From: Escherichia coli
GTDB lineage: Bacteria > Pseudomonadota > Gammaproteobacteria > Enterobacterales > Enterobacteriaceae
Assembly: GCF_024298765.1 (NCBI RefSeq)
Contig: NZ_CP101210.1
Reading direction: 5' to 3' (one strand)
DNA: 64,000 nt
Part shown: positions 12,933-41,300 of the stretch, in pieces
Position numbering within the stretch: the first letter of the stretch is position 1
How the letters are laid out: each line of letters starts with the position of its first letter
Position numbers and translations under genes: made by a program
Notes under the pieces: model-generated
What the model saw: only the letters and a program-made list of their open reading frames with translations
Database searches by the model: none
Told to the model about the DNA's origin: nothing

Positions 12933-13008
12933 GCCCGGATAGCTCAGTCGGTAGAGCAGGGGATTGAAAATCCCCGTGTCCTTGGTTCGATTCCGAGTCC
13001 GGGCACCA
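12933..13008 (+). tRNA. pheU: tRNA-Phe (anticodon GAA)
   Basis: 76-nt sequence GCCCGGATAGCTCAGTCGGTAGAGCAGGGGATTGAAAATCCCCGTGTCCTTGGTTCGATTCCGAGTCCGGGCACCA; anticodon loop ATTGAAAAT; identical to remembered E. coli tRNA-Phe; pheU assignment from yjdC neighbourhood. Confidence 0.97.
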
Positions 13009-13205: not shown

Positions 13206-14468
13206 ATGGCACTGACTGACGCAAAAATCCGGGCTGCAAAGCACACTGACAAGGCTTATAAACTCACTGACGGGGCTGGCATGTTCCTGCTGGTACATCC
13301 TAATGGTTCCCGTTACTGGCGTCTCCGTTATCGTATTCTGGGTAAGGAGAAGACTCTGGCACTTGGTGTGTATCCAGAAGTTTCTCTCTCCGAAGCTCGT
13401 ACAAAACGGGATGAGGCCCGAAAACTGATTTCAGAGGGGATTGACCCTTGCGAACAGAAAAGAGTTAAAAAAGTAGTCCCTGATTTACAGCTCTCTTTTG
13501 AACATATTGCACGACGCTGGCATGCCAGTAATAAACAATGGGCACAATCACACAGCGATAAAGTACTCAAAAGCCTCGAGACACACGTTTTCCCCTTTAT
13601 CGGCAACCGGGATATCACAACACTCAATACCCCGGACCTGCTTATCCCTGTTCGTGCTGCAGAAGCAAAACAAATTTATGAAATCGCCAGTCGTCTGCAG
13701 CAAAGAATATCTGCTGTAATGCGTTACGCCGTACAGTCTGGCATCATCAGATATAACCCGGCTCTGGATATGGCTGGTGCATTGACCACGGTAAAACGCC
13801 AGCATCGCCCCGCTCTGAATCTTTCACGTCTGCCTGAACTTCTGTCGCGTATTAACAGTTATAAAGGTCAGCCTGTCACCCGGCTTGCTGTTATGCTGAA
13901 TTTACTGGTTTTTATTCGCTCCAGTGAACTCAGATATGCCCGCTGGGCTGAAATTGATATTGACAATTCAATGTGGACTATTCCAGCCGAACGCAAACCT
14001 CTGCCAGGGGTAAAATTCTCACACCGGGGCTCCAAGATGCGAACACCACATCTTGTGCCACTCAGCAAACAGGCTGTAGCCATACTGACAGAACTTCAGA
14101 CATGGGCTGGTGAAAATGGTCTGATCTTTACGGGAGCACATGACCCGCGTAAACCAATCAGTGAAAATACCGTAAATAAGGCCCTCAGAGTGATGGGGTA
14201 TGACACAACCAAGGAAGTCTGTGGCCATGGATTCCGGGCGATGGCGTGCAGTGCATTGATTGAATCAGGTTTGTGGTCCCGCGATGCTGTGGAACGTCAG
14301 ATGAGCCATCAGGAGCGTAATGGTGTACGTGCTGCGTATATCCATAAAGCAGAACATCTGGAAGAACGTCGACTGATGCTACAGTGGTGGGCAGATTTTC
14401 TGGATGCGAACAGAGATAAGGGTATCAGCCCGTTTGAATATGCAAAGATTAACAATCCATTAAAATAG
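13206..14468 (+). CDS. int: P4-type tyrosine integrase (genomic-island integrase)
   Basis: 420-aa ORF immediately 3-prime of tRNA-Phe; N-terminal MALTDAKIRAAKHTDKAYKLTDGAGMFLLVHPNGSRYWRLRYR typical of P4/CP4-57-type integrases; C-terminal catalytic region with H-x-x-R and terminal Tyr region. Confidence 0.9.
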   Translation: MALTDAKIRAAKHTDKAYKLTDGAGMFLLVHPNGSRYWRLRYRILGKEKTLALGVYPEVSLSEARTKRDEARKLISEGIDPCEQKRVKKVVPDLQLSFEHIARRWHASNKQWAQSHSDKVLKSLETHVFPFIGNRDITTLNTPDLLIPVRAAEAKQIYEIASRLQQRISAVMRYAVQSGIIRYNPALDMAGALTTVKRQHRPALNLSRLPELLSRINSYKGQPVTRLAVMLNLLVFIRSSELRYARWAEIDIDNSMWTIPAERKPLPGVKFSHRGSKMRTPHLVPLSKQAVAILTELQTWAGENGLIFTGAHDPRKPISENTVNKALRVMGYDTTKEVCGHGFRAMACSALIESGLWSRDAVERQMSHQERNGVRAAYIHKAEHLEERRLMLQWWADFLDANRDKGISPFEYAKINNPLK

Positions 14469-14919
14469 TAAGCAGTCCGGGCTGATTGCCCGGACTGCTT
14501 TAACTGATTATTTTTCTTTGTAAATGATGACGAAGATTGATGTTCTGGCAAGTTACTCCGGCTTCCATTAAAGTCCCTTCGTCATGTTCTTCAGGCTATT
14601 TATGACTGTGATTAGCACCAGGAATATCTGGTTTCCATGAGAGCAGGTAATACCCCCCGGTGTTTTCGGCTGTTCTGGTATCCTTGTCCAACGCAGGCAG
14701 TCATTATAAACGGTAAAAAATGTATTCACTGTTATGAAATCAATAGTCCTGACGTACTGTTGAATGTGCTTGCGTTCTGAACCTTGTACAACCAGTACAT
14801 TTGATACCGAATTATAAACAAAACATTGCATCCAACTTTTTCAATATGGACAATAGTTGTCCATATGGTGGTTTTATATTCGATAAATCAATGGATTTCA
14901 TTGAGTCATAGGACTGGTA

Positions 14920-17900
14920 ATGGATGAAAATGCTTTAGGGTTTGCCTCATACTGGCGCAACTCGCTTGCGGACGCTGAGTCAGGAAAGGGCAGTTTTGAA
15001 CGGAAAGACGCCAAAAATTTCACTCATTGGCATGGGATAGCGGCGGGACGTCTTGACGAAGCGATTGTCAGTAAATTTTTTAAGGGAGAAAAAGACGATG
15101 TCGAAACGGTCGATGTCATCTTGCGCCCAAAAGTTTATTTCCGGTTACTGCAGCATGGTAAGGACCGTTCTGCAGGTGCGCCTGATATTGTTACCCCGAT
15201 AGTGACGCCAGCCTTGCTAAGCCGTGAGGGTTTTTTATATCCGACGCCAGCGACCTCCATTCCCAGAGACCTGCTTGAACCTTTGCCAAAAGGAGCATTT
15301 TCGATTGGTGAGATTGGGCAGTATGACAAATACAAGACGACCCATACCACGTTCTCTATCAACTTTGATGACAGCGTTGATAAGACTGCCGAAACGGATG
15401 AAGAACGGGAAGAACGATATGCAGCCTTGCAGCAGGAGTGGCGTCAATATCTGGATGATTCAGAGAGGCTGCTGAAGAACGTTGCCGGCGACTGGATTAA
15501 AAATCCTGAGCAATATGAACTCGCTGAGCACGGTTATATTGTTAAAACGGCGCAATCTGGCGGTGCCAGTTTCCATATCCTTTCTCTTTATGATCACCTG
15601 CTTGTTTGCAATAAGGATGTGCCGCTCTTCAATCGATTCGCCTCGCGAGAGGTTCATGCTGCAGAGTCTTTGCTGGCCCCTGGAGCAAAATTCAGCGACA
15701 GGCTTGGACACTCCGGAGATAAGTTTCCGCTGGCAAAGGCTCAGCGCGATGCCTTAAGCCATTTTCTGGATGCTAAACATGGCGATATCCTTGCTGTTAA
15801 TGGCCCTCCTGGAACCGGAAAAACCACGCTGGTGCTTTCTATCATCGCCACGCAGTGGGCCAGAGCGGCTCTCGAAAAATCTGAGCCTCCGGTTATTATC
15901 GCGACTTCAACGAATAACCAGGCTGTAACGAACATTATTGAGGCATTCGGGAAAGACTTTTCGCAAGGTTCAGGTGCGATGGCCGGGCGATGGTTGCCAG
16001 AGCTGAAAAGCTTCGGCGCTTATTTTCCCTCAGGCAGCCGTAAAGCTGAAGCAGCCAAAAAATATCAAACTGAAGATTTCTTCAACCAGGTTGAGTCAAA
16101 AGAGTATGTAGAAGATGCACTGCTGTTTTATCTGGAAAAGGCTAAGGCAGCCTTTCCTGAAAAAGAGTGTTCATCCCCTGAAAAGGTCATTGAACTCCTG
16201 CATGGTCAGTTGGCAGCAAAATCCGAGCAACTGATAAGACTGAACGCAACATGGCAAAAGTTAAGCCAGATTCGGGCTGCGCGTGAGCTTATTGCTAATG
16301 ATATTGAGCAATATCTCAATAATTTAAATAAATTACTTTCCGGACAAGAACAAAAAATCACTCTACTGAAGAGTGCTAAAACGGAATGGAAAAAATATCG
16401 CGCCGGTGAATCACTGATCTATTCATTATTTTCCTGGCTTCCGGCGGTTCGCAGTAAGCGACAGTACCAAATACAGCTGTTTCTCGAAGATAAATTAGGT
16501 GCGCTGATTGCAGGAAATCAATGGTCTGATCCTGAAACTATCGAACGTAATATTGATGGGCTGCTCAATTCCGCTGAGCGCGAGCAAACAACATACCGGC
16601 AGCAGATTGACTCCGCCCATGAAATCATTCTTAAAGAACAGCAGGCGGTTCAGGAGTGGCAGAGACTGGCTCTTGATTTAGGGTATGAGGGCGACGAGGA
16701 ACTGAGCTTCTCACAGGCCGATGAACTGGCTGATACGCAGATTCGCTTCCCTGCATTTTTACTGACGACTCACTACTGGGAAGGTCGTTGGCTGATGGAT
16801 ATGGCCAGCATTGATGATCTGCAGGAAGAGAAGAAGAAAAAAGGCGCTAAAGGGGTAACCGCCCGTTGGCAACGTCGAATGAAACTCACTCCATGTGTGG
16901 TGATGACATGCTATATGCTGCCCGGCAATATGCAGATAAGTGAGCACAAAGGACAGCGTAAATTCGAGAAAAGTTATTTGTATGATTTTGCCGATTTACT
17001 CATTGTCGATGAAGCCGGGCAGGTGCTTCCTGAAGTGGCTGCTGCCTCGTTTGCATTAGCTAAGAAGGCATTAGTGATTGGCGATACGGAGCAGATCCCG
17101 CCAATATGGAGTATTGCTCCTGCGATTGATATCGGTAACATGCTGGCGGAAAAAATTCTGTCTGGCAGTACGCAAGAAGAGATTACCGAGAAATATACGG
17201 CAATCGCAGACCTTGGTAAAAGTGCCGCATCTGGCAGCGTTATGAAAATAGCGCAGTTTGCTTCGCGCTATCAATATGATCCCGAACTGGCTCGTGGTAT
17301 GTACCTATATGAACACCGCCGGTGCTACGACAATATTATTGGATACTGTAATACGCTCTGCTATCACGGTAAGTTGTTGCCTAAAAGAGGGCGTGAAGAG
17401 AGCAATTTAATGCCCGCAATGGGGTATCTCCATATTGATGGTAAAGGAGAGCTGGCAAGTAGTGGAAGTCGATATAATTTGCTTGAGGCTGAAACGATAG
17501 CGGTCTGGTTGGCAGAGAACCAGCAAAATATTGAAGCGCATTACGGTAAATCGCTTCATGAAGTTGTCGGTATTGTGACGCCTTTTAGCGCTCAGGTATC
17601 CACTATCAAACAGGTGCTGGGCAAACAAGGTATCAGTACGGGCACGAATGAAAAGTCGCTCACAGTGGGCACCGTGCACTCTCTTCAGGGAGCGGAAAGA
17701 GCGATTGTGATATTCTCGCCAGTCTATTCAAAACATGAAGACGGCGGGTTTATTGATAGCGATAACAGCATGCTGAATGTTGCAGTCTCCCGTGCGAAGG
17801 ACAGTTTTCTGGTCTTCGGCGATATGGACCTGTTTGAGGTCCAGCCAGCCTCATCGCCACGGGGATTACTGGCAAAATACCTCTTTGAGTCAGAGAAGAA

Positions 17901-18435
17901 TGCGCTCTCTTTTGATTATAAAGAGCGTAAGGATTTAAAAACCGCCGGGACCAAAATCTACACACTTCATGGTGTGGAGCAACATGATAATTTCCTGAAT
18001 CAGACATTTGAAAATACCAGTAAACACATCACGATAGTTTCTCCATGGCTGACCTGGCAAAGGCTGGAGCAAACCGGTTTTCTTGATTCCATGATTGCGG
18101 CGTGTTCACGTGGAATTAACGTCACGATAGTCACTGACAGAAGCTACAACACTGAACATAATGATTTTGAGAAGCGAAAAGAGAAGCAGCAGAACTTTAA
18201 AGCGGCGCTGGAGAAACTGAATGCGCTGGGTATTGCTACAAAGCTGGTAAACCGTGTTCATAGCAAAATTGTTATTGGTGATGATGGTTTGCTGTGCGTG
18301 GGATCGTTCAACTGGTTTAGTGCGACACGGGAAGCGCGATATGAACGATACGATACATCAATGGTTTATTGCGGTGATAACCTGAAGGGTGAGATTGAGG
18401 CTATTTATAATAGTCTTGAGAGGCGGCAGGTTTAG
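14920..18435 (+). CDS. large SF1 (Upf1/DNA2-like) helicase fused to C-terminal PLD-family (HKD) nuclease; candidate single-gene anti-phage defence protein (Mokosh type II-like)
   Basis: 1171-aa ORF; Walker A GPPGTGKT at 15802..15825; Walker B-like LIVDEAGQ; motif VI-like [17 protein letters not shown]-terminal HxKxxxxD motif HSKIVIGDD at 18259..18285; first cargo gene after integrase. Confidence 0.7.
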
Positions 18436-18543
18436 AGCAGGAATGGTGAGTAGCCATCTTACCGATCGTTTTCGAGCGTAAGATGGCTGAATGGAATGGC
18501 TATTATTGCACAGTCCTTAATTATAACATTCATACCGACATGA

Positions 18544-20043
18544 TTATCTTCTGTCCGGAAGAATCAGAGGCTGTGGTTTCAGACTGTCTGCCGGTACATT
18601 CCTGTCTCCGTTAAAAACAATAACGGGTTCATTATCTTCGTCTGTCAGCGGATTGAATGGCGGTATATTTTCAGTACGAATGCCGGTCAGCCACTGAAAA
18701 ATACCTGCGAAATGACGGGCACTGATTTTTCTGCTGACGGACTGATGAGACGTGATGTCACTGGCGGTAATAATCAGGGGAACGCTGTAGCCTCCTTGTA
18801 TATGGCCATCATGATGAACAGGATTAGCACTGTCGCTGACCGACAGACCATGGTCAGAAAAGTAAAGCATGGCAAAATGACGGGAGTGCCGGCGAAGGAT
18901 ACCATCAAGCTGACCGAGAAAGTTATCCAGTTTACTGATGCTGGCGAGGTAACAGGCAATCTTTCGGGGATACTGCTCCAGGTAATGATTCGGCCAGGAG
19001 TTAAGTCGGTCACACGGATTCGGATGAGAGCCAATCATGTGCAGGAATATCACCTTCGGAGAGGATTTATCCGCCAGTGCACGTTCTGTTTCCTGTAACA
19101 ACAACATGTCATCCGTTTTACGGGAAGCAAAGCTGCCTTTCTTGAGGAAAACGGTATGCTCCGCATCAGAAGCAATAACAGAGATGCGTGTATCATGCTC
19201 CCCCAGTTTTCCCTGATTGGATATCCACCATGTGCTGTATCCTGCTTTTGCTGCCAGCGCCACCACGTTGTTGCCGGAGTCAGGGTTCTGCTCATAGTCA
19301 TAAATCAGTGTCCGGCTCAGGGAAGGTACGGTACTGGCTGCTGCCGATGTATAGCCGTCAATAAATAAACCGGGAGCCGTATTCAGCCATGGTGTGGTTG
19401 GCACGGGATAGCCATATACCGACATATAATCCCTGCGCACACTCTCACCAGTAACGATAACAATCGTGTCATACAACGGTGTTCCCGGCAGGATTTTCCA
19501 GTTGTCAGCCCCGTGCTGACTCAGTTGTTTATAACGCTGCATTTCACGCAATGTGTCAGTTGTTCCCACAACAATTCCTTTAACCATCCGCAACGGCCAG
19601 CTGTTTACAGAGCATAATACGAACAGCAGCAGTGCCAGCCAGTTACGGTGACCGCGGTGGTGTGTCCGCCAGAAAATCACCATGAATACCAGAATCGCGG
19701 CACTGACCAGAAAATGATAAACAGGAATCATCCCGGTAAACTCTGCAGCCTCATCAGCCGTGGTCTGCAGCAACGCGACAATAAAACTGTTGTTGATTTT
19801 ACCGTACGTCATACCCGCAGGCGCATACAGTGCACAACAGAACAGAAATAACAGCGTTGTAATGGATGTGAGGGTATTTCTGTGTGCAAGGAGCAGAAGG
19901 AGAAACAGAAGCAGCACATTTCCTGTGGCATTCTTCTCAGTGTATCCGCATGCAATTGTGGTTATCACAGAAATAACAAAAAAGAATAAAAACAATAAAA
20001 TCCGGGGTGTGTCGCCCGGACAAAACAGTTTTCTGATATTCAT
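18544..20043 (-). CDS. phosphoethanolamine transferase / sulfatase-superfamily inner-membrane protein (EptA/MCR-like family)
   Basis: 499-aa ORF; N-terminal multi-TM region then periplasmic domain with VTGESVRRDYMSVYGYP (cf. GE[T/S]AR nucleophile motif of EptA/MCR), HMIGSHPNP and FSDHG metal-site motifs. Confidence 0.7.
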   Translation of the reverse strand: MNIRKLFCPGDTPRILLFLFFFVISVITTIACGYTEKNATGNVLLLFLLLLLAHRNTLTSITTLLFLFCCALYAPAGMTYGKINNSFIVALLQTTADEAAEFTGMIPVYHFLVSAAILVFMVIFWRTHHRGHRNWLALLLFVLCSVNSWPLRMVKGIVVGTTDTLREMQRYKQLSQHGADNWKILPGTPLYDTIVIVTGESVRRDYMSVYGYPVPTTPWLNTAPGLFIDGYTSAAASTVPSLSRTLIYDYEQNPDSGNNVVALAAKAGYSTWWISNQGKLGEHDTRISVIASDAEHTVFLKKGSFASRKTDDMLLLQETERALADKSSPKVIFLHMIGSHPNPCDRLNSWPNHYLEQYPRKIACYLASISKLDNFLGQLDGILRRHSRHFAMLYFSDHGLSVSDSANPVHHDGHIQGGYSVPLIITASDITSHQSVSRKISARHFAGIFQWLTGIRTENIPPFNPLTDEDNEPVIVFNGDRNVPADSLKPQPLILPDRR

Positions 20044-20224
20044 CGGAGTATATCGACAACATTATTATGAAGAGAACAGGATAATAAAAATCAGAAATTA
20101 TCTGTAAAACAGATAACAGACAACCCTGCAGCAATAGACTGCAGGGTGTTTCTGTTTAATTGCAGAAGATATACAATTATATTAATTACAGAATATTCGT
20201 GATTATCTCTCGGGAACAGTGTTG

Positions 20225-20965
20225 TCAGAAGTTATAAGTCACACCAAGCATGATGTCATGACTTTTAACATCAACTTCTGACTTATATTTATCGCCCCAC
20301 TCGTCCTTGTAACTCACACTGCTGTCACCTGCATCAAGATAGCGATAGCTGAGGTCCAGAGCGATATCCGGGGTTACGTCATAGCGGACACCCGCGCCAA
20401 GGTTCCATGCGAAGTTGTCAGCAGAGCCTGAACGTGACAACGATTCGCGACCACTGCTTCCGTACTCATAATCCCAGGTACTGATACCGGTTGTTTTCTG
20501 GTGAATTCTGGCGTAGCCAATCCCTGCAGATATCCAAGGTGTGAATGCGCTGTCATTCCGGAAGTCATAGTACGCATTCAGCATTAGTGTGTTGACTGAC
20601 ACCTCATTCTTCAGGTCATCACGCCAGTAACCACCTGACCAACTGTCTTTATCTACGTTATACTTCGAATCAGCTTTTCCACGAGCGTAAAACTCCAGTT
20701 CTGTACGAACCGGAATACTGAACTGCGGATAAAAATCATAACCAGCCGCGATACCACCACTGAATACCGTATCATGGTCATCGCCGCCTTTATACTTTGA
20801 CGTTTCTTCCTCATCTCCTGACAGGAAACGCTGGTCTGAAAGTGACACCACAGAGGTACCGGCTTTACCGGTCAGATAAAAACCGCTTTTACCTTCCTCA
20901 GCACCTGCATTTGCTGCAAATACACAGGCTGCGGCCACCACTGAAACAGCAAAAACCTTTTTCAT
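20225..20965 (-). CDS. outer-membrane beta-barrel protein (OmpA-like transmembrane barrel family)
   Basis: 246-aa ORF; Sec signal peptide MKKVFAVSVVAAACVFAANA; alternating amphipathic beta-strands; C-terminal aromatic residue (GVTYNF) typical of OMPs. Confidence 0.7.
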   Translation of the reverse strand: MKKVFAVSVVAAACVFAANAGAEEGKSGFYLTGKAGTSVVSLSDQRFLSGDEEETSKYKGGDDHDTVFSGGIAAGYDFYPQFSIPVRTELEFYARGKADSKYNVDKDSWSGGYWRDDLKNEVSVNTLMLNAYYDFRNDSAFTPWISAGIGYARIHQKTTGISTWDYEYGSSGRESLSRSGSADNFAWNLGAGVRYDVTPDIALDLSYRYLDAGDSSVSYKDEWGDKYKSEVDVKSHDIMLGVTYNF

Positions 20966-31006: not shown

Positions 31007-31036
31007 GCCTGTGTCCATATTACGTGGGTAGGATCA

Positions 31037-31685
31037 CTAAGCCAGGAATTAAGTCATTTAAAGATATTTCAAATTCACTGGCAATCGTATCTAATCCTTC
31101 CTTATCAATAGATTCAAGCCATAAATTATAATCAATAGGAAGAAGCAACGGATGAGTAAAGTTCAATCTATTTACTAAAGATGATTTAGTATACTCATCA
31201 TTACTTAGCTCTCCAATAAATTCATTATTTATAGAAACAGCATAGTTCTTTATATATGCTGCTCTGTGCAATTGTGACCATGCGATTTTAAACTCTACAT
31301 AAACCTTTTCAGTTTCATCTGCAATGTCTTTCATTTTTATAAAATGAATATCGAAAATATCACCAAGTTCTTCTAAATATGTTTTATATTCTACACCTAT
31401 TGTTTGTTCAGGATCGAAACCGATACCAATAGTAATTACATTATTCAGATCCCCATTATGGACTAGAGATCTAAATCCATCTATGCGCCTGTTCCCCATA
31501 GCTTCTAAATATATAGGATCACACTGCTCACGGTCTAATATTTGTTGAAGATAAAATAATGCAATTAAAATAGTAGTCTTGCCCGCGCTGTTTGGCCCCA
31601 ATAGTAATGTTACAGGTGCAAAATCAATTTCCTGCCGCTCTCTAACAGATCTGAAATTTTCAAGTACAAGTTTAGTTAATTTCAT
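31037..31685 (-). pseudogene. AAA/ABC-type ATPase gene (OLD/Abi-like N-terminus) truncated at 3-prime end by IS3
   Basis: N-terminus MKLTKLVLENFRSVRERQEIDFAPVTLLLGPNSAGKTT (Walker A); ORF runs into the IS3 terminus after about 215 codons. Confidence 0.65.
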
Positions 31686-31693
31686 AATGAACC

Positions 31694-32800
31694 TTACATG
31701 AAATATTTATTCGATAGGTTTGATGCTAAAAGTTGAAGTTGCATTGCGCTTTTATCATAAATGCTTAGTCCTTTTTTTATTTTTTTATAAATAATCTCAT
31801 ACTCATCTTGTAGATGCTTAGGTGGGATTAATATCTCTATATTCTGCAATTCCTGTGCATTAATATTAGCCATGCCAACAATACTTTTACACATATTCAT
31901 CAATGTGATTTTGCCATGGATGGAATTAAGATACCCTGAAATATAGTAGTTATTTCCGATAGAATTAGGTCTAACGCGGATTAAATATCCAGCAAATGCC
32001 ATAGGCCTGTCTTCTTCATACACAGCTGTTTTACCAACAAGTTCCTTACTGTTAGTACGATTGAAAAGAAGATCGCCTTCTTTAACCAAATATTTATCCT
32101 TTTCTTTTACACTGAGATCAAGATATTTTAAATCTGTAAAATCCCACCTACCTTGATATGTTATATTACCCATCCGTAATATAGGATATTCACCAGAATC
32201 AATAGAGGCTTTTGCTGAAGTTCCATAATTTACTGAATCAACCAAGTCGCGAATCGTTCCTTTCGGGAAACGATGTATGTTGTTTGCAGGAGTTCCAAAC
32301 ATCTCTAGAAACTTAGCCCGCAAAAAATCATCAGCCAGTTTGATGGCTTGTTCGCGTTTTTGGCGTATACCCTCAGCTTTATCGAGAAGATCCACAATTC
32401 GTTTCTGCTCTTCAAAAGGTGGTAATTTAATAAATGTATCATAGAGATCGTCTCTATTTAATCCAGGAATACTTGTGGTAATCGTTTTCTTAGTGAGATC
32501 AATTCCGCTCAGAATATAAAACAAGTATCGGAGATCTAACTTATTATTATCTTTGATCTCAACGTAATAAGCAGTATCAATGATCCAACCTCCGTCAGGA
32601 GCCCAGGTAATAGCACCAACGCTGCCTTTGCGACCAATAATTATCGTGGGATAGCTGCAAAGCGTTTTATCGTGGTTGCCGACAATTCCTGAACTACCAA
32701 AAACATGGACACTTCCATTCGATACTCGCTGATCAGCTTTTAATGCTTTTCCGTAGTGAACATTAATAACATCCCCTAACTTCACCATCGCCGAACTCAC
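31694..32800 (-). CDS. hsdS: type I restriction-modification specificity subunit HsdS
   Basis: 368-aa ORF overlapping hsdM stop by 4 nt; two target-recognition-domain-like halves; operon position. Confidence 0.8.
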   Translation of the reverse strand: MSSAMVKLGDVINVHYGKALKADQRVSNGSVHVFGSSGIVGNHDKTLCSYPTIIIGRKGSVGAITWAPDGGWIIDTAYYVEIKDNNKLDLRYLFYILSGIDLTKKTITTSIPGLNRDDLYDTFIKLPPFEEQKRIVDLLDKAEGIRQKREQAIKLADDFLRAKFLEMFGTPANNIHRFPKGTIRDLVDSVNYGTSAKASIDSGEYPILRMGNITYQGRWDFTDLKYLDLSVKEKDKYLVKEGDLLFNRTNSKELVGKTAVYEEDRPMAFAGYLIRVRPNSIGNNYYISGYLNSIHGKITLMNMCKSIVGMANINAQELQNIEILIPPKHLQDEYEIIYKKIKKGLSIYDKSAMQLQLLASNLSNKYFM

Positions 32801-34431
32801 AGCATACCCTCCAGCTCATCCAGATCCGCCAGAATTTCTTTTTCCAAATCTTTTAAGCGCTTTAGTATCACCTTCGGATCTTCATATTCCTCCGCCTGAT
32901 ACACCACTTCTTTATAACGATTGATAGAGAGATCGTATTTCTGCGCAGCAATATCCGCTTTCGGTACAACAAACGCCGCCTGCGTGCGATCTTTAAAATC
33001 AACGCCAGCATCAATCCCTTCCGGGTACTGCTGTTTAAGCAACGAGGCTAACTTCTCACCCATAAAGTTATCAACCGGTAGCCCGCGTAAAGTACGGTAA
33101 TGCTTCCAGCTTGCCAGCAGATGCGGCAGATCGTTGTCTTTTATCGGGTTGCGCTTATCATCCAGGCTGTAGCCATCATTTTGCAGATCGTAGAACCAGA
33201 CCTCATCCGTTTGACCGCCTTTGGTAAAGATCAGGATCGCCGTCGCCACGCCAGCGTAAGGTTTAAATACACCAGAAGGCAGATTGATCACCGCTTCCAG
33301 TTGGTTATCTTCCACCAGCGTTTTGCGAAGTGACTGGTGCGCCTTGCTGGAGCCAAACAGCACGCCCTGCGGCACGATAGTGGCACTGCGCCCGCCCACT
33401 TTCAGCATTTGCAGAATACGCGCCAGGAACAGCAGTTCGGTTTTTTTGGTTTTCACCATTGCCGACAACGTGGAGTCGATATCTTCCTCGTCCAGTGAAC
33501 CGGTAAAAGGCGGGTTCGCCAGAATCAGATTGAAAGCGTTTTTACTGGCCTGAGGGAAGTTAGTGCTGAAGCTCTGGCTCATGGTGTCCTGATAGTGAAT
33601 ATCCGGCGCTTCCACACCGTGCATAATCAGGTTCATAGCGGCGATACGCAGCATGGTGGTATCAAAATCGTAACCGTGGAACATATTGTTATCTACATGG
33701 TTACGCCACGGTGTCAGCAGATCGCCGGTAAAGATTTTTTGCTCTTCCAGTTCGCCACGTTCGTTGGTGCCAATCTCAGTATGGATGGATTCCAGCGAGC
33801 TGTACTTCTCCAGAAGATATTCATAGCTGGTTGCCAGAAAACCACCGGTGCCACAGGCGGGATCACAAATCGTCTCGCCGCGGGCCGGGTTCGGCTCCAT
33901 CATTTCAACCATCGTGCGGATAATGTGGCGCGGCGTGCGGAACTGACCGTTGATTCCGGCAGTGGTCAGCTTGCTTAACAGGTATTCGTAAAGGTCGCCT
34001 TTGGTGTCGCCACGATCCAGCGGCAGGTTTTTGATCACCTCAACCGCTTTGGTCAGTAATGACGGCTTAACAATCTCCAGACGAGCATCTTTCATAAAGT
34101 TGCCCAGCAGCGTCACCTTCGACGCATCGGCCTGGCCAAGCTGACGAAAATGCTGGAATACGCCATCGCGCACCACTTCCATCATCTCATCCGAGCCAAG
34201 ATTGCTATAGTGACTGAAACGGAACTCCTGCTGTTCTGGCGCAAAACGCGGTTTAAAATCAATTCCCGCGATTTGTTTACGCTTCTCGTCGCGTTGTTCC
34301 TGGGTATCCAGCATCCGGGAATACATCAGATAGGTGATCTGTTCGATTACGGTCAGCGGGTTGGTGATACCACCCACCCAGAAATCTTCCCACAGGCCGT
34401 CGATTTTACTTTTTAAGTCACCAGTGATCAT
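32797..34431 (-). CDS. hsdM: type I restriction-modification N6-adenine DNA methyltransferase HsdM
   Basis: 544-aa ORF; SAM-binding [10 protein letters not shown] and catalytic NPPF motifs. Confidence 0.9.
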
Positions 34432-34494
34432 TGTTAGCGTTTATATCCTGTTTTAAATACAAAAGCCCCGCTGTCGGGGCTTGTCATGTGCGTA

Positions 34495-37400
34495 TTATAC
34501 CGTCGCTGCGTCGGTCACAACACCCAGCTCTTCGACTATCTTTTGCAGGCGGGCGATCTGCTCTATATCCGGGAACACACCGGTAACGCCTTCGTTGTGG
34601 ATATGCGTAAAAGGCTGTTCAAAGAGCTGCCGCATTTCAATGGTGCCGTAATCGCGAATGTGGTTTTTCAGCAATGACAGGAAGCGCAGTTGTTGGCTGG
34701 TCAGACTGTTATCAGCGGCGAACTGAGCAAAGCGCACTTCCACCGCGTCGCTGTCCATCCCGATGATGGTACGCAAAAGTTTATCCAGGCTGGCAGTTGC
34801 CTGCGGATAGAACTCTTTCAGTGCCCGGATATCAACGTTGGGGTTCTGGATCAGCACCAGCTTCGCCAGCTCATCCAGCTCGTTTTGCGTGACTGGCTCA
34901 CCGTTGCGGATTTTCTTCAGCACCGGATTTTGCTGGAACAGCGGCTCCAACGCTCCCTGAACCTGCTGGCGATAGAGTTTGAAATCAATCGAGCGGATAT
35001 TAGTTTTGCGGGTCTCTGTCTGGATCAGGTTCGCATCTTCGGTAATATCTACCTGTATCGAACCAAATTTTGGCGTCGCGTCTTTTTCCATCAGGTGCAT
35101 GATGCCGCGCAGATGAATGCGGATATCTTCCAGCTCTTCCAGGCTGGCCTGCTTCCACCAGCCTAAATCACGAAGCTGATTGATCCGCGGTCCTTGCTGT
35201 TGGACCTGCGCCAAATGCGGCGGCAGGCGCTCCACTTTTTCGACGATGACCGGCCAGAGCACATCCAGCTCTTCCGGGTTGGTATAACGGGCAGTTTGCG
35301 CCGCCAGAATATCCATATCAAAGCGCATAGCGTCGCTTTGCCCGCGCACGTCCAGCCACTGCATCAGCGGGGCCAGGACAGATAGCAAATCCTGCTGTGT
35401 TTTCGGGGAAAGCTGGCGCAGCACTTTTTCATCGCTGTACTGCGCTTTTTGATGCCACTTTTCCTGGACGGCAATCGACTTTTCATCCAGTGCATTGATT
35501 TGCTCGCGTAGCTGGTGAGCAACTAAATCCACCGCCTGTTTGTCGAATTTACGTTGCGCAGCGGCCCCCAGCATAACCCACGCTTCGAAGCGTTTTTGTG
35601 CAAGCGATTTTGTCGCTGTGACTTCGGCCTCTTCGGTATGCAGTTCGTGATACTCAAAATTGCCCCAGTGATCGAAAATGCGGAATTTCTGTTTATCCAG
35701 AGGTTTGCCGTTATCGTCGTAACCGTACAACCCCGGACAGAGGCGCGTACCACGGCCAATCATCTGCCAGAACTTCACTTTTGATTTGACCGGTTTGGCA
35801 AAGACCAGATTCACAATTTCCGGGACATCAATACCGGTATCGAGCATGTCAACGGAGATAGCGATGGTCAGCTCTTTGTTGGTGCTTTCATCCAGCCCTT
35901 TAAAATCATCAATCAGTTGCTCGGCGCGGGGATCGTAATTGTCGATGACCTGGCAGAAGCGCCCGGCAAACTGCGGGTACATATCGTCGAATAATTCATT
36001 CAACAGCAGCGCGTGTTTGTGGTTACGGGCGAAAATGATGGTTTTACCTGGCAACTGGCCGTCCCGATCTTTCAGGCCATTTTCCATCAGGTTACGCAGG
36101 ATATAGCGGTTGGTGTCTTTGTTGTAGATCGCCTCATCCAGCGCCTTGCCATCAAACTCCAGCGTATTGGGATCTATGCCTTGTTCTTCCAGCTCGCGGA
36201 TTTGTGCGTCGCTTAATTTCTCCCGTTTGATGCCTTCGCGCAGGAATTCTGTGGTGTGCGTGACAACCTCATAGGGAACCAGATTGTTATCGGCGATGGC
36301 ATCTTCCAGGCTGTAGTTGGCGGTAGGAATACGTCCTTCACAACCAAACAGGCCGAAAGTGGTTTTACTCACCATGTCAATCGGCGTGGCCGTCAGGCCA
36401 ATCTGGAGGGCATCAAAATACTTAAACAGATCGCCGTAAACGTTGTAGATAGAGCGATGGGATTCATCGGCGATGATCAAATCGAAATAACCAACATCGA
36501 AATGGTCCATGATTTTCATCATACCAGGATAGGTGGCGATGTAGATCCTAGCATTCTGCCTGTCTGCTTTTTTCGATTTCCCGACCACATACAGCGGCTC
36601 ATTGGTGAATTGATTAAAGGCATTCGCCGCCTGTTTACGTAGTTCCTTGCGGTCGCAAAGAAACAGGACGCGTTTTACCCAGCGGGCATCAATCATCAGT
36701 TTGCTTAGCGCTATTGCCACGCGGGTTTTGCCTGTACCCGTAGCCTGAACAATTAGCGATTGCCGGTATTTGTTGGTAAACCGCTCGCTGACACGGGCAA
36801 TGGTTTCAAGCTGGTACAAACGTCCGGCAACGGCCTTACCTTCGTTATCTTTTACGTGCGGCACACTGTTCAGCGGAAGACGGGTTTCACGCTGTTGAAT
36901 AAGATATTGCAGGCTTTCCTTGCTGTAGAAGCCAAACACCCGACGCGGGGGATAACCATGAGTTTTATGGTCATCCCACAGCCAGATATCATAGCCGTTG
37001 GTGTAGAAGATGATCGGACGCTGGCCGTATTCTTTTTCCAGCCAGTCTGCATACAGCCGGGCCTGAATTCGTCCTTGCTCGGCATTGACGCTGGTTTTTT
37101 TTGCTTCCACCACCGCCAGCGGTTTGTGTGCCTCATCCCACAAGACATAGTCCGCATAACCGTCTCCGGTCGCGGTAGGTTGTTCTTTAACGGGATGTTC
37201 CTGCGTAACCTGATCGGTATTTTTAAGGCCTTCGCCTACATTCCAGTCAGCAGCAAGCAGGCGAGAGTCAATCAGGCGACGGCGGGTTTCCGCTTCATCA
37301 ATAGAGAGAATATCGGCAACATGCTGGTTACGCGCTCTGGCTTCATTCAGGCGTTGAGTGAGGTGTTCGGCCTTTTCCTGTTCTTGCTGTAGTGCGCGTT

Positions 37401-37911
37401 GCAGCGCCAGTTCGCGCTCACGGCTTTCATCCTGAGCCCTGATTGCATCTTCCAGACGTTTTTCATCTGCACGACCTGAAGATTGTGTTAATGGAGGGAG
37501 TGTAAATTTGGGGCAGTCATCAACATTACCGTGGGCGTAGCGAACATACAGCCAAATTCCCAACAAATACGCTTCTTTGAGCAGCCAGTAAGTATCTTTA
37601 GCTTTGATACGTCCGCCGTGCGCGGCACGGTTGCCATGGATACGCAGCGCATCCATTTTCATGATGATGGCTTCCGGCATCATGCTGGTAAAGACATCAG
37701 CATTCATTAAATCGTAAAGATTAGCCTTAATACCTTCCGGCAACCGCTCCTGACGATACAACCAGCGCACCATCAATTCGGTGTAGTTGCGCAGCTTGAC
37801 CAGACAGCTTTCCGGATCGGAGTGAACATAGCGTTCCGCCATACACGCGAGTTCAGCCAGTTCCGGCCACTGGCTGCGCAACATTTCAAAATTGAGAGAC
37901 TGCTCCATCAA
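34495..37911 (-). CDS. hsdR: type I restriction enzyme endonuclease/helicase subunit HsdR
   Basis: 1138-aa ORF; PD-(D/E)xK-like segment (DYVLWD...VVEAKK), SF2 helicase motifs (ATGTGKT, DESH); upstream of hsdM on same strand. Confidence 0.9.
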   Translation of the reverse strand: MMEQSLNFEMLRSQWPELAELACMAERYVHSDPESCLVKLRNYTELMVRWLYRQERLPEGIKANLYDLMNADVFTSMMPEAIIMKMDALRIHGNRAAHGGRIKAKDTYWLLKEAYLLGIWLYVRYAHGNVDDCPKFTLPPLTQSSGRADEKRLEDAIRAQDESRERELALQRALQQEQEKAEHLTQRLNEARARNQHVADILSIDEAETRRRLIDSRLLAADWNVGEGLKNTDQVTQEHPVKEQPTATGDGYADYVLWDEAHKPLAVVEAKKTSVNAEQGRIQARLYADWLEKEYGQRPIIFYTNGYDIWLWDDHKTHGYPPRRVFGFYSKESLQYLIQQRETRLPLNSVPHVKDNEGKAVAGRLYQLETIARVSERFTNKYRQSLIVQATGTGKTRVAIALSKLMIDARWVKRVLFLCDRKELRKQAANAFNQFTNEPLYVVGKSKKADRQNARIYIATYPGMMKIMDHFDVGYFDLIIADESHRSIYNVYGDLFKYFDALQIGLTATPIDMVSKTTFGLFGCEGRIPTANYSLEDAIADNNLVPYEVVTHTTEFLREGIKREKLSDAQIRELEEQGIDPNTLEFDGKALDEAIYNKDTNRYILRNLMENGLKDRDGQLPGKTIIFARNHKHALLLNELFDDMYPQFAGRFCQVIDNYDPRAEQLIDDFKGLDESTNKELTIAISVDMLDTGIDVPEIVNLVFAKPVKSKVKFWQMIGRGTRLCPGLYGYDDNGKPLDKQKFRIFDHWGNFEYHELHTEEAEVTATKSLAQKRFEAWVMLGAAAQRKFDKQAVDLVAHQLREQINALDEKSIAVQEKWHQKAQYSDEKVLRQLSPKTQQDLLSVLAPLMQWLDVRGQSDAMRFDMDILAAQTARYTNPEELDVLWPVIVEKVERLPPHLAQVQQQGPRINQLRDLGWWKQASLEELEDIRIHLRGIMHLMEKDATPKFGSIQVDITEDANLIQTETRKTNIRSIDFKLYRQQVQGALEPLFQQNPVLKKIRNGEPVTQNELDELAKLVLIQNPNVDIRALKEFYPQATASLDKLLRTIIGMDSDAVEVRFAQFAADNSLTSQQLRFLSLLKNHIRDYGTIEMRQLFEQPFTHIHNEGVTGVFPDIEQIARLQKIVEELGVVTDAATV

Positions 37912-38004: not shown

Positions 38005-38337
38005 TTAATTCTCATATTTAAAGTCGATGTTTATTTTGAGTGTTTCAATATTCACAGTGACTTCGCAACCATGCCAGAATGGCTTTTCTTGTGATTTAAA
38101 GTTATCCACAAACAAATTTCTTAGTTCCACCAAAAGATCTAAAAGTCTTTCACTGGCATCTGCGGTTTCAGTGATCCAATGTTGATTGCCCTGTTTATCT
38201 ACATAGTCATAAGTAAACTCACCACAGTCGCTTTCCGGTTCTAACTTTGCACACAGAATGATTTTGACTGCATCACTAGGAGTGATCGATAGCAACACCG
38301 AACCAATGTCATTATAAATATCCTGATCAGAACGCAT
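38005..38337 (-). CDS. cdiI: putative CdiI immunity protein for the adjacent CdiA-CT toxin
   Basis: 110-aa ORF whose ATG overlaps the cdiA stop (TAATG); position immediately downstream of a VENN-delimited CdiA-CT. Confidence 0.6.
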   Translation of the reverse strand: MRSDQDIYNDIGSVLLSITPSDAVKIILCAKLEPESDCGEFTYDYVDKQGNQHWITETADASERLLDLLVELRNLFVDNFKSQEKPFWHGCEVTVNIETLKINIDFKYEN

Positions 38338-41300
38338 TATTTACCTCCGGGTGCATTGTTAAATACTTTTTCAATCGGGCGACCTCCATCTATCGAATAT
38401 ACTACTTTAAATTTAGCAGGTCTGACACTATCCCCAATATACGATGGCTGAATGTTGACCTTAACCTCTTTTCCTTCACCCAATGCTTTTGCCCAAGTAT
38501 TTTCCATCTGCTTCCAGGCTCCTTTGTTCAGATTTCCATCCATTGGAACAAGGTTCAATTTTTCACCAGGACCATTAAAAATACTGGCTATTAAATGACC
38601 ACCCTCATCTCCATCAAGGCCACACTTACCTGCTTTACATTGTTGATAGCCATTTCTATCCTTTACATTAGGACTAAGAGTTGCTTCAACCTGGCTTGGC
38701 CTTGCCTGAGCATCAGTTTTATAAATTTTATCACCATCTACATGATAAACTTTATTCGGCTGTGGGTTATTTAGCTCTTTGCTCCAGTTCCCTTTACCAC
38801 CTGAGTCTAGCATCAGCTTTTCAAGTGACTCCGCACTGATTTTCTGACCTGTCTGTTTTTCAACAGCCATTAGAGCCTTCAACTCTGACAACTCGCTGGC
38901 AGACATTTTACCAACCGCCGCTACTGTCAGGCCCGCTGGAAGAGCATCGCCAGCGACCATTTCCGCAACCCAGATACTAACTTCATTTGCACACAGCACA
39001 GTATTCGCACCACAGGCACTGACTGCTGCCTGGGCGGCTGCAATTGCTTCCGGAGTCAGAGCAATCACTACCCCACCTGTAGCCCCCCCAACAAGCGCTG
39101 CTGCAATCGCTTTGTTTACAGCCTCACCGCGTTTACATTCAGCCCCGCCAGGGTTAGTCGAGCAGGACGCAATATCTTTGCCATGCTCCTGCACGAACTT
39201 GGTCTGAGTGTCTTCATTACCACCCAGCAGGTTATTCTCAACAACATTCTTCCCAGCAGCAGCTCCGGTAGCCACACCCGCAGTATTCCCACCTGCAACA
39301 CCACCCGCCATACCTGCTGAGATACTCGCCAGCGTACTTAGCGTCTGCTTCTGGTCCTCGGTCAGCTTCGACAGGTCTTTCTCATCCGGATATAAAACCT
39401 TCGCGATTGCACCTGCGATAAGTTCACCGCTCACCGCACCGACTGAACCTGCTGCGGCATTATTTCCCTGAAGAGCCGCAGTCACACCGCCGAGAATGGC
39501 ATGAGCAATGGCTTTCGCTGCATCGTTATCATTAATTCCAGCATTGTGCCCTATGAAGTTTGCCAGTTCCGGTGCAGAAGCTCCGGCCAGAGCACCCGCT
39601 AAATTCCCCCCAGCCAGTCCCTGAAGCGCGGCTGTCGCGGCCTGGATACCCCGCTGCATATCGCTACCGGTACCATACTTTTCCTGTTCCTTTTTGTATT
39701 CCGGCGTATCACGCAGTTTTGCCAGATATGCCTGCCGCTGTTCTTCCGTCGTATCCGCCGGAACAGGCCCATATTTATCCTGCGCAGCCTTCAACGCATT
39801 CAGTTCACCCTGCGTCCGCGCGATATCCGCCACCTGACTGCCTATGTCACTGATAAGCCCCACTGTCTGCAGACGCCTCTGCTCTTTCTCCTTGTCAAAT
39901 ATCGGGCTGATACTGTCGTTGGCGTGTTCCGGGTCACGGCTCAGGTTCGCCAGATTCTGCTTCTGATTGTCCCTGTCCCGGATGGTGATAGTGCCTTCTG
40001 CCACTGCGGCCTGAGTCGTTCCTTCCGCATGTCCGCTGTGACCTCCGGCGGATATCATGCCACCCGGCATGTTACCCTGAAATTTATCCCCGAAGCTGCC
40101 ACCACCGCTCAGACTGATTCCACTGTGACTGACTTTATAATCCGCTTCGTTGTGAAGGTCACTGAACCCCAGCGTTCCGGTATCCAGGTGGTTTTTATCC
40201 GGTGTGGCAGTGGAGGCAATCACCGCACCATCCAGTTGGGTATGTTTACCCACTGTGATGTCGAAGCCGCCGTCACCGGCAAACATTCCGGTTTGTTCAG
40301 CAACGGAGTCAAAGCGGCTCTTCATCTTATCCCGGGAGGCAGCGATGTAACCTGAGCCGGTCATGGAGCCAAAGGTAAAACTGCCGCCGGCAGCCACGCT
40401 GGTCTGTTTACTGTCGTACTTACTGGTGTCCTGCTGGCTGCTTATCAGCAGGTCGTGGCCCACATCGGCGATAATCCTGTTGCCGTTGACCTGAGCACCG
40501 TTCAGTACCGTATCCCGACCACTGTTGATGGTGACGGTTTTACCGCTGTCTATTGTGGTTTCAGTCCACTCAGTACCGTTACCTTTCTCGCTGCCTTTTG
40601 CCGCATTAACGCTGGCAAAGACACTGATACCGGCACCGTTACCACCGGCACCGATACTGACACCCACGCCACCGCCACTGCTGCTGTTCCTGCCCGTTGT
40701 TTTTTGTGTGTTTGCCGCGCCACTCAACAGAACATCATTCGCAGCATCCAGGTTTGTGTTACCACCGGCCTTAAGCTGGCTTCCGGCAATCACAATATCT
40801 CCGCGGTTATCGCCCCTGTTTTTACCGGTTGCGACAACAGACAGATTATTCCCGGCATTCAGCGTACTGCCGGATACTGTGTCACTTTCAGAATGTTGTT
40901 GTGATTTCGATTTCTGGGTGGTGAGCGACAGGCTGACTCCCATCGCATTCGGGTCACCGGTTGCGGAGGCCATTGCCGCAGCCTGTCCGGCCTGCACACC
41001 AGACAGCGCTGTCTTTGTAGCCTGCAGGGTTTTCAGACGGCTGTCACTGCTCTCCTTCGTCTCCTGTGCACTGGTGACCGCATTATTGATGGCACTGCCC
41101 ACTGTGCCGGAAAGGGCAACCGTCAGCCCGCTTTTCTTCTGCTCAAATTTTTCGTCCACAGTACGACGGTCATGCCCCGGGTCAACCACCACACTGTCAC
41201 CGGTAATGCTGATATCCCGGTTCGCAATCACATCCGAACCGCTGATATGAGCCTGTTTGCCCGCGGTAATACTGACATTACCGGCAGTGGAGCCGATGGT

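Follow-up and report, generated by a model that had tools for sequence, protein, structure and literature searches.

The gene on the plus strand at positions 14920..18435 of the analyzed stretch of Escherichia coli DNA (64,000 nucleotides, hereafter the window) is very probably mkoC, which encodes a helicase-PLD nuclease and constitutes the single-gene E. coli Mokosh type II system, contained in a compact cassette (approximately 14817-18498) inside the pheU island. The open reading frame starts with ATG, lacks internal stops and specifies a protein of 1171 amino acids (131.5 kDa). Among the PADLOC models, that of MkoC (PDLC03924) was the top match and covered the full length, with residues 1-1169 aligned to model positions 1-1135/1136 (E = 0, 1694 bits), and the scores of the MkoA (3.5e-36) and MkoB (7.6e-17) models for the same protein were far below it. 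The helicase precedes the PLD nuclease in one polypeptide, with neither a kinase domain (no kinase match in the Pfam search of the 1171-aa protein) nor a separate MkoB gene, which is the arrangement of type II. The gene is flanked by that of an integrase on one side and that of a phosphoethanolamine transferase on the other; four neighbouring genes tested against the PADLOC models gave no matches. Mokosh type I (MkoA and MkoB, for example, in ETEC H10407) likewise combines a COG1112 Upf1-like core with a PLD nuclease, but it consists of two genes, with a Ser/Thr kinase on the helicase protein and a separate HTH-PLD protein, MkoB, and is without the N-terminal domain of MkoC. The window protein matched the MkoA and MkoB models only partially, at residues 692-994 and 1011-1138, respectively, and the assignment to type I was rejected on the basis of the single gene, the absent kinase domain and this limited coverage by MkoA.

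The verified representative of type II, SG150, is an MkoC of 1171 amino acids from E. coli 5-366-08_S1_C1 (IMG gene 2586378093; Millman et al. 2022, bioRxiv 10.1101/2022.05.11.491447), of which the first 399 residues were compared with the window protein. Over this part, the two were 97% identical, with 9 of the 12 differences located in the N-terminal domain. Such high identity would extend across the full length, judging from the other E. coli alleles, which were 95.9-98.4% identical to the window protein. As far as the SG150 record could be compared, the two copies are alike in length, domain order, motifs, immediate upstream DNA and ribosome-binding site, and they differ by approximately 3% of the amino acids, mostly in the N-terminal domain. 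The initial annotation had described the gene as Mokosh type II-like. The type was correct, and likeness proved to be an understatement, since the same length, the 97% identity over 399 residues and the conservation of the native upstream DNA indicate, at the level of sequence, that the window gene is an allele of the E. coli gene that experimentally established type II. The defence role of the window allele is, hence, predicted from a near-identical verified protein. The gene, the defence role and the first biochemistry have already been published, so that the finding is not new, and it is of low value as a discovery, being flagged by standard tools (PADLOC and DefenseFinder). The conserved residues and the cassette limits described below could nevertheless provide handles for experiments on sensing by the N-terminal domain, the need for ATP and the activation of the single HKD motif.

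Domain architecture of the protein

The protein was shown to be an SF1B Upf1-like helicase that carries an N-terminal domain, a helical insertion in RecA1 and a C-terminal PLD (HKD) lobe. Motif searches, with all features on the plus strand, located Walker A (helicase motif I), GPPGTGKT, at residues 295-302 (15802..15825), with K301 as its lysine, as had been annotated initially; Walker B, LIVDEAGQ, at residues 694-701 (16999..17022); VSRAKD at residues 956-961 (17785-17802); and HSKIVIGDD at residues 1114-1122 (18259-18285), in which the HKD motif spans 1114-1121. The SF1 helicase core claimed for the intact 1171-aa frame was also supported by matches to Pfam AAA_12 at 777-969 (2.2e-21) and to Pfam AAA_11, which was split between 272-492 and 679-729, and a partial match to TIGR00376 (the IGHMBP2 family) was obtained. 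Together with the secondary structure in an AF2 model (pLDDT 92.8, pTM 0.88), the splitting of AAA_11 delimits an insertion of approximately 310 amino acids in RecA1 (residues 346-655; 15955..16884, +), which consists mostly of long helices (394-654) in the model. A Foldseek search with this model matched senataxin, UPF1, IGHMBP2, Aquarius, Sen1, DNA2 and nsp13, with senataxin, UPF1 and IGHMBP2 at the top. The eukaryotic SF1B Upf1-like helicases (UPF1, senataxin/Sen1, IGHMBP2, Aquarius, DNA2 and MOV10L1/Armitage), which share the RecA1/RecA2 core and accessory insertions in RecA1, were thus the best structural matches (Foldseek E of 1e-16 to 1e-12), with weak sequence matches and 11-14% identity. 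MkoC differs from them in its far longer helical insertion, its N-terminal domain and its fused PLD nuclease. In the model, the insertion lies where Upf1-like helicases carry the 1B/1C accessory stalk and may be equivalent to it.

The PLD nuclease lobe (residues 996-1171; 17905..18432, +) was identified by Pfam PLDc_2 at 1028-1138 (1.2e-09), PLDc (9.6e-04) and partial matches to the PADLOC models of MkoB and DrmC. As initially noted, the HKD motif is single: HxK(x)4D occurs exactly once in the whole protein (H1114-K1116-D1121), and a GSxNWS motif follows at 1128-1134. In an alignment of 61 homologues, Walker A was invariant or nearly so, D1121, G1128 and W1132 were invariant, and H1114 and K1116 were nearly invariant. 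One HxK(x)4D motif and GSxN within a lobe of approximately 150-175 amino acids are also found in the single-HKD nucleases Nuc (of the Salmonella plasmid pKM101), Zucchini/MitoPLD, BfiI, NucT and DISARM DrmC, and the window protein gave weak profile matches to NucT and DrmC. Hachiman HamAB, Gabija GajAB, Nhi, Hhe and PLuB share with MkoC the logic of a helicase/NTPase sensor and a nuclease effector, but they differ in the helicase family or the nuclease fold; the Hhe and PLuB models matched the helicase core partially, with scores far below the family cut-offs.

The N-terminal domain (residues 1-270; 14920..15729, +), a family-specific domain of mixed alpha/beta composition, is a candidate sensor or regulator. 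The initial annotation had recognized no motif in it, and this was borne out, as residues 1-270 gave no Pfam match, no PDB sequence match and no convincing fold match. A reading of the domain as distinctive of this copy did not hold, because the same domain is present in the verified MkoC as well as in over 100 distant relatives; by sequence comparison, it appears to be a conserved part of the family and not an addition peculiar to the window copy. Its invariant residues are D18, G104, R116, L119, P121 and Y224, with R116, L119 and P121 lying in IPRDLLEP. A homologue search with the N-terminal 280 amino acids gave fragments only. For SG149, a Bacillus megaterium candidate for Mokosh type II that did not defend, profile comparison revealed no similarity in the N-terminal region, and the domain is therefore not universal among the proteins labelled type II. 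Diversifying selection was considered as well: dN/dS was highest in this domain (0.27, compared with 0.15 overall) but well under 1, and positive selection is, for that reason, not claimed.

Relatives without the PLD lobe were found to keep the N-terminal domain and the helicase and to be tightly linked to genes for an ART-PolyVal ADP-ribosyltransferase, GGDEF or CTD1/MComp1. If this chassis is paired with other genes in place of the PLD lobe, Mokosh type II would be one branch of a wider, undescribed family that swaps effectors, in which the N-terminal domain could be a new sensor or autoinhibitory module that selects the triggering phages. We put this forward tentatively, as a possibility that we consider rather doubtful.

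Published activity and proposed mechanism

The SG150 allele, together with its native upstream DNA, protects E. coli from phage, and this protection is abolished by mutations of Walker A or the PLD active site (Millman et al. 2022, bioRxiv 10.1101/2022.05.11.491447). For EcMokosh II, the construct limits of M1-A995 and L996-end fit the boundary at A995/L996 in the window protein, and the predicted mass of 132 kDa agrees with the 131.5 kDa obtained here (bioRxiv 10.1101/2025.07.10.664194). When purified, EcMokosh II is monomeric in solution; it cuts ssDNA (M13 and SECphi17) and nicks plasmid DNA, with dsDNA not being cleaved, and this cleavage in vitro requires the nuclease site and does not depend on the NTPase site (bioRxiv 10.1101/2025.07.10.664194). 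The NTPase is, in other words, needed in vivo and dispensable for cleavage in vitro. The text and the figure legends of that preprint conflict as to the concentrations at which cleavage takes place (all of them, or 1 uM alone), and, in a panel of 11 phages, protection was observed only against the ssDNA phage SECphi17, where it again depended on Walker A and the HKD motif (bioRxiv 10.1101/2025.07.10.664194).

As the explanation that we prefer, the helicase may load onto exposed single-stranded phage nucleic acid, either the genome of an ssDNA phage or an intermediate of replication, and translocate in the 5' to 3' direction driven by ATP. This translocation would find the substrate or feed it to the PLD lobe, which would cut it. 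The N-terminal domain and the helical insertion might act as a sensor or autoinhibitor that spares host nucleic acid.

Single-HKD PLD nucleases are homodimers that form one active site from two lobes. MkoC is unlike them in being reported as monomeric in solution and in being fused to a helicase, and the monomeric state sits uneasily with the activity of a single HKD lobe, which was counted against the preferred explanation. By analogy with Nuc, Zucchini and BfiI, in which two lobes together make up a single active site, the MkoC monomer probably has to join another copy once it is on the substrate.

The target may alternatively be RNA, in that MkoC would sense and destroy phage RNA or RNA/DNA hybrids, with the cleavage of ssDNA in vitro being secondary. 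RNA or RNA/DNA intermediates were the target proposed by the discoverers (bioRxiv 10.1101/2022.05.11.491447), from the likeness to Upf1 and the analogy to the piRNA pathway, in which a helicase (Armitage/MOV10L1) works with a PLD nuclease (Zucchini). The closest solved folds are, moreover, those of RNA helicases (senataxin with ssRNA, UPF1 and IGHMBP2), and RNA and tRNA were outside the substrate panel of the preprint, as noted there (bioRxiv 10.1101/2025.07.10.664194). However, the sole direct biochemistry is cleavage specific to ssDNA, and the sole phage restricted in the panel has an ssDNA genome. Upf1-like helicases, DNA2 and IGHMBP2 among them, act on ssDNA too. We regard an RNA target as unlikely. 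A literature search on condensates or a piRNA mechanism for Mokosh returned nothing relevant.

Cassette boundaries, island context and distribution

Alignment to the SG150 fragment and eight other E. coli loci indicated that the region at 14817..14919 (+) moves with mkoC in all contexts, with weaker similarity extending back to approximately 14775. It includes a palindrome, TGGACAATAGTTGTCCA, at 14847-14863, and a ribosome-binding site, AGGA, at 14910-14913. The window shares the last approximately 145 nucleotides before the start codon with the cloned SG150 fragment, and the DNA farther upstream differs, as the verified copy has different island surroundings, which resemble those of loci L009 and L010. 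The native promoter is presumably within 14817..14919. A scan upstream of mkoC for the sigma-70 consensus found no site, and only poorly spaced hexamers were seen by eye, because of which no specific promoter is claimed; the absence of a consensus promoter was also counted against the preferred explanation.

The initial annotation had taken flanking hairpins as a sign of a self-contained unit. The unit is supported by the cassette boundaries and by the downstream hairpin, whereas the upstream hairpin was rejected as a part of it. The latter, a perfect 13-bp GC-rich hairpin at 14470..14500 (fold z = -7.9), begins 2 nt past the integrase stop codon and is missing upstream of mkoC in L009, L010 and the cloned SG150 fragment; since mkoC copies in other contexts do without it, it is likely to be the integrase terminator, outside the mkoC cassette. 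The downstream 12-bp hairpin (18451..18489, +; fold z = -2.6) is located 16 nt past the mkoC stop codon, in the interval that separates mkoC from the convergently oriented phosphoethanolamine transferase gene, and was conserved in all nine loci. In L009 and L010, which have other downstream neighbours, a compensatory change from C-G to U-A preserves its pairing. It is probably a terminator or a 3' stabiliser, and the homology of the cassette stops near 18498.

The integration site of the island is a tRNA-Phe (GAA) gene at 12933..13008 (+; ARAGORN), the pheU copy, which lies downstream of dsbD-dicD in the RefSeq context of strain 26561. It is followed by a P4-type tyrosine integrase of 420 amino acids (13206..14468, +), identified by Pfam (Arm-DNA-bind_3, 7.6e-29; Phage_int_M, 2.4e-27; Phage_integrase, 2.6e-17) and NCBIfam (PRK09692, 2.6e-74), and mkoC is the next gene. 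An arm-binding DUF4102-type N-terminus and a tyrosine recombinase core downstream of a tRNA gene characterize a P4-type island, in line with the initial description of mkoC as the first cargo gene.

The gene was found in 888 of 5426 complete E. coli genomes (16%). It adjoins integrases at pheU, pheV and leuX in other strains and also occurs in other islands, where its neighbours include an HNH endonuclease gene, genes for restriction enzymes and for a TIR protein, and a type I RM locus; the 64-kb window likewise contains a type I RM system. In E. coli, 975 instances of Mokosh II have been counted, and the system co-localises with RM IV. Some copies are truncated or interrupted by IS elements, and the gene is under purifying selection overall, with the catalytic motifs intact in all nine alleles. 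This distribution refutes a role as a housekeeping or repair helicase with an accidental island location, to which we assign a negligible probability. Such a role could be read into the RefSeq name, given as no more than "AAA domain-containing protein" in every complete E. coli genome inspected, and into weak partial matches to RecD and RecD2. These matches, however, span the P-loop only (25-27 bits against cut-offs of 310-500), and the presence in only 16% of genomes, in several unrelated islands, points to a mobile, non-housekeeping context for the homologues, as had been anticipated.

It is also conceivable that the gene chiefly serves the island, its nuclease-helicase product being directed at rival mobile elements, such as satellites or conjugative plasmids entering as ssDNA, and that phage defence is secondary. 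The conserved position directly after the integrase at three tRNA sites, the exclusively chromosomal location of the E. coli matches (930 of 930, none on a plasmid) and the specificity for ssDNA, which would also suit incoming conjugative DNA, are in accordance with this role. Full-length homologues are, however, carried on plasmids of other genera, and protection against phage has been demonstrated experimentally, making this role quite improbable compared with phage defence.

In UPEC/APEC, the classic islands at pheU, pheV and leuX open with the integrase, followed by mkoC, the phosphoethanolamine transferase gene and the gene for an outer membrane protein. Their conserved entry module therefore includes a phage-defence gene. 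In strain 26561, the gene is 100% identical to that of the window; the island departs from the window beyond approximately 29 kb, and the region at 28-48 kb of the window is matched better by other strains.

Identity of mkoC as a Mokosh type II gene

The open reading frame of mkoC, located at 14920-18435 (+) in the window, was confirmed to start with ATG and to run uninterrupted for 1171 codons. A motif search of its product, MkoC, located the Walker A motif GPPGTGKT at residues 295-302, LIVDEAGQ at 694-701, VSRAKD at 956-961 and, as the sole HxK(x)4D motif, HSKIVIGDD at 1114-1122, and every motif quoted in the initial annotation was present, K301 included. The SF1 helicase and PLD nuclease assignment was also borne out by Pfam, in which AAA_11 (split in two, residues 272-492 and 679-729), AAA_12 (777-969, 2.2e-21) and PLDc_2 (1028-1138, 1.2e-09) all matched. 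The PADLOC model of MkoC was aligned with residues 1-1169 over model positions 1-1135/1136 (E=0, 1694 bits), and those of the type I proteins, MkoA and MkoB, matched the helicase core and the PLD lobe only. No NCBIfam model reached its own cut-off for the product, and its RefSeq label is only "AAA domain-containing protein".

Mokosh systems are defined by a COG1112 RNA-helicase domain and a PLD nuclease, which are both present in one gene in type II (bioRxiv 10.1101/2022.05.11.491447). Millman et al. (2022) reported that E. coli was defended by three Mokosh systems, that native intergenic DNA was included in their clones and that mutations of the ATP-binding or PLD active site abolished the defence, and their supplementary table gives the verified type II system, SG150, as "Escherichia coli 5-366-08_S1_C1, MkoC, 1171 aa" (bioRxiv 10.1101/2022.05.11.491447). 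Over the first 399 residues of SG150, which were those compared, the window MkoC has 12 differences (97.0% identity), and the last ~145 nt upstream of the mkoC start codon align with the cloned SG150 fragment. We also compared nine E. coli alleles, which share 95.9-98.4% full-length identity with the window MkoC with all catalytic motifs intact, and one of them has only 2 differences from SG150 in the 399 positions. Because of the match to SG150 and this comparison, mkoC of the window is, by its sequence, an allele of the Mokosh type II type specimen. Thus, the reading of mkoC as a defence gene was supported, but the wording "Mokosh type II-like" was too weak. Type I is excluded, since mkoC is a single gene without a kinase.

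All the type II features that are testable in silico were found, namely an Upf1-like helicase, an HKD PLD nuclease, a single kinase-less polypeptide and a full-length HMM match, and the defence phenotype has been demonstrated for the SG150 allele, which is 97% identical over its first 399 residues. Therefore, the finding itself is already known, and the value of this analysis is in confirmation and descriptive detail, the additions being the cassette limits, the conserved residues of the N-terminal domain, a conserved palindrome and hairpin, and the first-cargo position in pheU, pheV and leuX islands.

Domain architecture and PLD-less relatives

MkoC was searched with phmmer against 1.84 billion cluster representatives, giving 12,979 matches at E<=1e-3, of which 1,141 reached E<=1e-30, with more than 100 representatives aligning from residue ~1-10 to ~1150-1170. 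We aligned 61 full-length members (30-51% identity). The motifs of the helicase and the PLD residues H1114, K1116, D1121, G1128, S1129, N1131, W1132 and S1134 were invariant or nearly so, and Y11, D18, G43, F54, G104, R116, L119, P121, D136, W174 and Y224 were conserved in the N-terminal domain, R116, L119 and P121 falling in its 'IPRDLLEP' motif. The AlphaFold2 model built with this alignment (pLDDT 92.8, pTM 0.88) consists of a mixed alpha/beta N-terminal domain (residues 1 to ~270), a RecA1 domain into which a long bundle of helices (394-654) is inserted, a RecA2 domain and, following it, a compact PLD lobe (~1012-1171). A Foldseek search of the PDB with the predicted structure returned senataxin, UPF1, IGHMBP2, Aquarius, Sen1, DNA2, nsp13 and ZNFX1, which places the modelled helicase in the SF1B Upf1-like group, and the phmmer matches agree with this assignment.

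Pfam gave no match to residues 1-270, in agreement with the earlier description of this domain as unassigned. It is, however, a hallmark of the MkoC clade, the verified protein included, rather than special to the window copy. The domain is absent from a Bacillus megaterium type II candidate, which failed to defend. Among the E. coli alleles, the dN/dS of the whole gene was 0.15, indicating purifying selection, with the first RecA1 segment most constrained (0.01) and the N-terminal domain least so (0.27). The latter value hints weakly at diversification but gives no evidence of positive selection.

About a dozen phmmer representatives, 967-1036 aa long, correspond to MkoC residues ~1-996 and are without the PLD lobe. 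Such relatives of window 14920-17904, with lengths of 967-1005 aa and the same N-terminal domain, are placed tightly beside varied genes on four contigs (L011:4322-7982, L012:3851-7973, L016:920-4872 and L017:4001-9649). The neighbours, each on one contig, are, on the upstream side, an ART-PolyVal ADP-ribosyltransferase (gap of 26 nt) and a GGDEF protein (gap of 8 nt); a CTD1 protein with a 4-nt overlap, which has MComp1 and an SMC-like ATPase fragment behind it; and, 43 nt downstream, an 872-aa protein with no Pfam match. On two further contigs, no informative partner gene was found. This arrangement suggests effector swapping on a shared chassis of N-terminal domain and helicase, which is the sole part of this analysis that might go beyond published knowledge.

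Proposed mechanism

A protein termed EcMokosh II was purified in a 2025 preprint, with construct limits of M1-A995 and L996-end and a predicted mass of 132 kDa (bioRxiv 10.1101/2025.07.10.664194). The window MkoC has the same A995/L996 boundary and a mass of 131.5 kDa, and, to judge by the construct limits and predicted mass, the two are the same protein. EcMokosh II was reported to be a monomer (~138 kDa by mass photometry), to nick plasmid DNA and to cut none of the dsDNA genomes tested; M13 DNA cleavage was lost with mutation of the nuclease site only, not of the NTPase site, and the text and legends conflict on the concentration dependence of cleavage (bioRxiv 10.1101/2025.07.10.664194). 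In vivo, the ssDNA phage SECphi17 was the only one restricted among 11 phages (bioRxiv 10.1101/2025.07.10.664194), and the ATP-binding site is needed for defence (bioRxiv 10.1101/2022.05.11.491447). In vitro, only ssDNA (M13 and SECphi17) was cut among the DNA substrates of the panel (bioRxiv 10.1101/2025.07.10.664194), and RNA or RNA/DNA intermediates, which were proposed by the discoverers (bioRxiv 10.1101/2022.05.11.491447), are an alternative target.

When the preprint biochemistry is combined with the ATP-site requirement in vivo, the best-supported model is that an Upf1-like 5'-to-3' translocase would engage exposed single-stranded phage nucleic acid and deliver it to the PLD nuclease, or license the nuclease. 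Single-HKD PLD nucleases, such as Nuc, Zucchini and BfiI, usually build a single active site out of two lobes. Given this rule, the MkoC monomer with its one lobe would be expected to pair on the substrate to complete the active site, as we infer. The N-terminal domain and the helical insertion are obvious candidates for sensing or autoinhibition.

Mobile cassette and island context

Nine mkoC loci representing at least three kinds of context were compared. The similarity starts at ~14817 (weaker back to ~14775) and stops near 18498. The upstream part of this cassette contains an AGGA ribosome-binding site and the palindrome TGGACAATAGTTGTCCA at 14847-14863, 57-73 nt before the start codon, which is kept in all nine E. 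coli loci even where the more distal upstream DNA is unrelated. Its variants disrupt pairing without compensation, and the palindrome is therefore read as a probable protein-binding site, such as an operator, or promoter element rather than as an RNA hairpin; a consensus sigma-70 scan upstream of mkoC detected no promoter. Downstream, a 12-bp hairpin at 18451-18489 is kept in all nine loci, and the cassette homology ends ~10 nt past it. In two loci with different downstream neighbours (L009 and L010), a C-G pair is replaced by U-A and the loop differs, a compensatory change characteristic of a structure under selection, and the hairpin probably serves as a terminator for both mkoC and the convergent gene. 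Since the cassette limits are shared across contexts, the initial annotation was right to call mkoC a self-contained unit, but only the downstream one of its flanking hairpins belongs to it, and the strong hairpin at 14470-14500, directly behind the stop codon of the integrase, is not carried along with mkoC. The 450-nt gap between integrase and mkoC also holds an 87-aa ATG ORF on the opposite strand (14568-14831, -), which has no RefSeq annotation and lies in a region swapped for other DNA in some mkoC contexts.

The position of mkoC as the first cargo gene after a P4-type integrase at a tRNA gene was verified, with tRNA-Phe at 12933-13008 and a 420-aa integrase (Arm-DNA-bind_3/Phage_int_M/Phage_integrase) at 13206-14468; groES/EL, aspA, dcuA, cutA, dsbD and dicD upstream of tRNA-Phe identify the pheU site. 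After mkoC, 18544-20965 (-) encodes a 499-aa CptA/EptA-like phosphoethanolamine transferase, below all curated cut-offs, and a 246-aa outer membrane protein, whose NCBIfam match is the adhesin Adr; one other strain has a gene labelled Tia at this position. Together with the integrase and mkoC, these two genes form a conserved module that also opens islands at other sites in other strains, being found at leuX in UPEC 536 (pap genes next), at pheV in other strains and at pheU in ST131. Elsewhere, mkoC lies between an HNH endonuclease and a restriction endonuclease, a TIR-domain protein and a type I RM system, or beside IS debris. The window is chromosomal E. coli DNA, and mkoC is present in 888 of 5426 complete E. 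coli genomes, always on the chromosome and 100% identical in many; in CFT073 the match covers just one half of mkoC, and IS100 interrupts the copy of another strain. A survey of E. coli counted 975 "Mokosh II" instances, 882 of them co-occurring with type IV restriction, with non-random co-localisation of both systems (bioRxiv 10.1101/2022.08.21.504612). Full-length homologues (40-57% identity, residues ~4-1169) are carried by plasmids of Arsenophonus, Pseudomonas syringae, Vibrio and Agrobacterium. Thus, mkoC is an accessory, mobile, defence-associated gene; its island, plasmid and patchy distribution rules out a housekeeping role, and the mobile context on which the earlier reading had been staked held at several island sites.

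Strain 26561 (NZ_CP027118.1) carries a 100% identical mkoC with the same left flank, and its island departs from the window beyond ~29 kb, with pap fimbriae in place of the type I RM system and cdiA, indicating that the cargo behind the conserved entry module varies between strains. In the window, the island of mkoC carries a complete type I RM system at 31694-37911 (-), with strong full-length PADLOC matches for hsdS (31694-32800), hsdM (32797-34431) and hsdR (34495-37911), all on the minus strand. Just downstream of hsdS, a 221-aa ORF at 31020-31685 (-) aligns solely with the N-terminal ATPase portion of models for PDC-M55A, AriA, NsnB and GajA-type proteins (E 2e-17 to 1e-11), and may be a truncated OLD/Gabija/PARIS-like ATPase remnant or a short accessory protein. 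A 1154-aa ORF at 38337-41801 (-) is annotated as CdiA or a hemagglutinin-repeat protein in matching genomes, and 45267-48636 (-) encodes an mchF-like microcin export ABC transporter of 706 aa with a 424-aa partner; with these genes, the island mixes defence, competition and virulence cargo.
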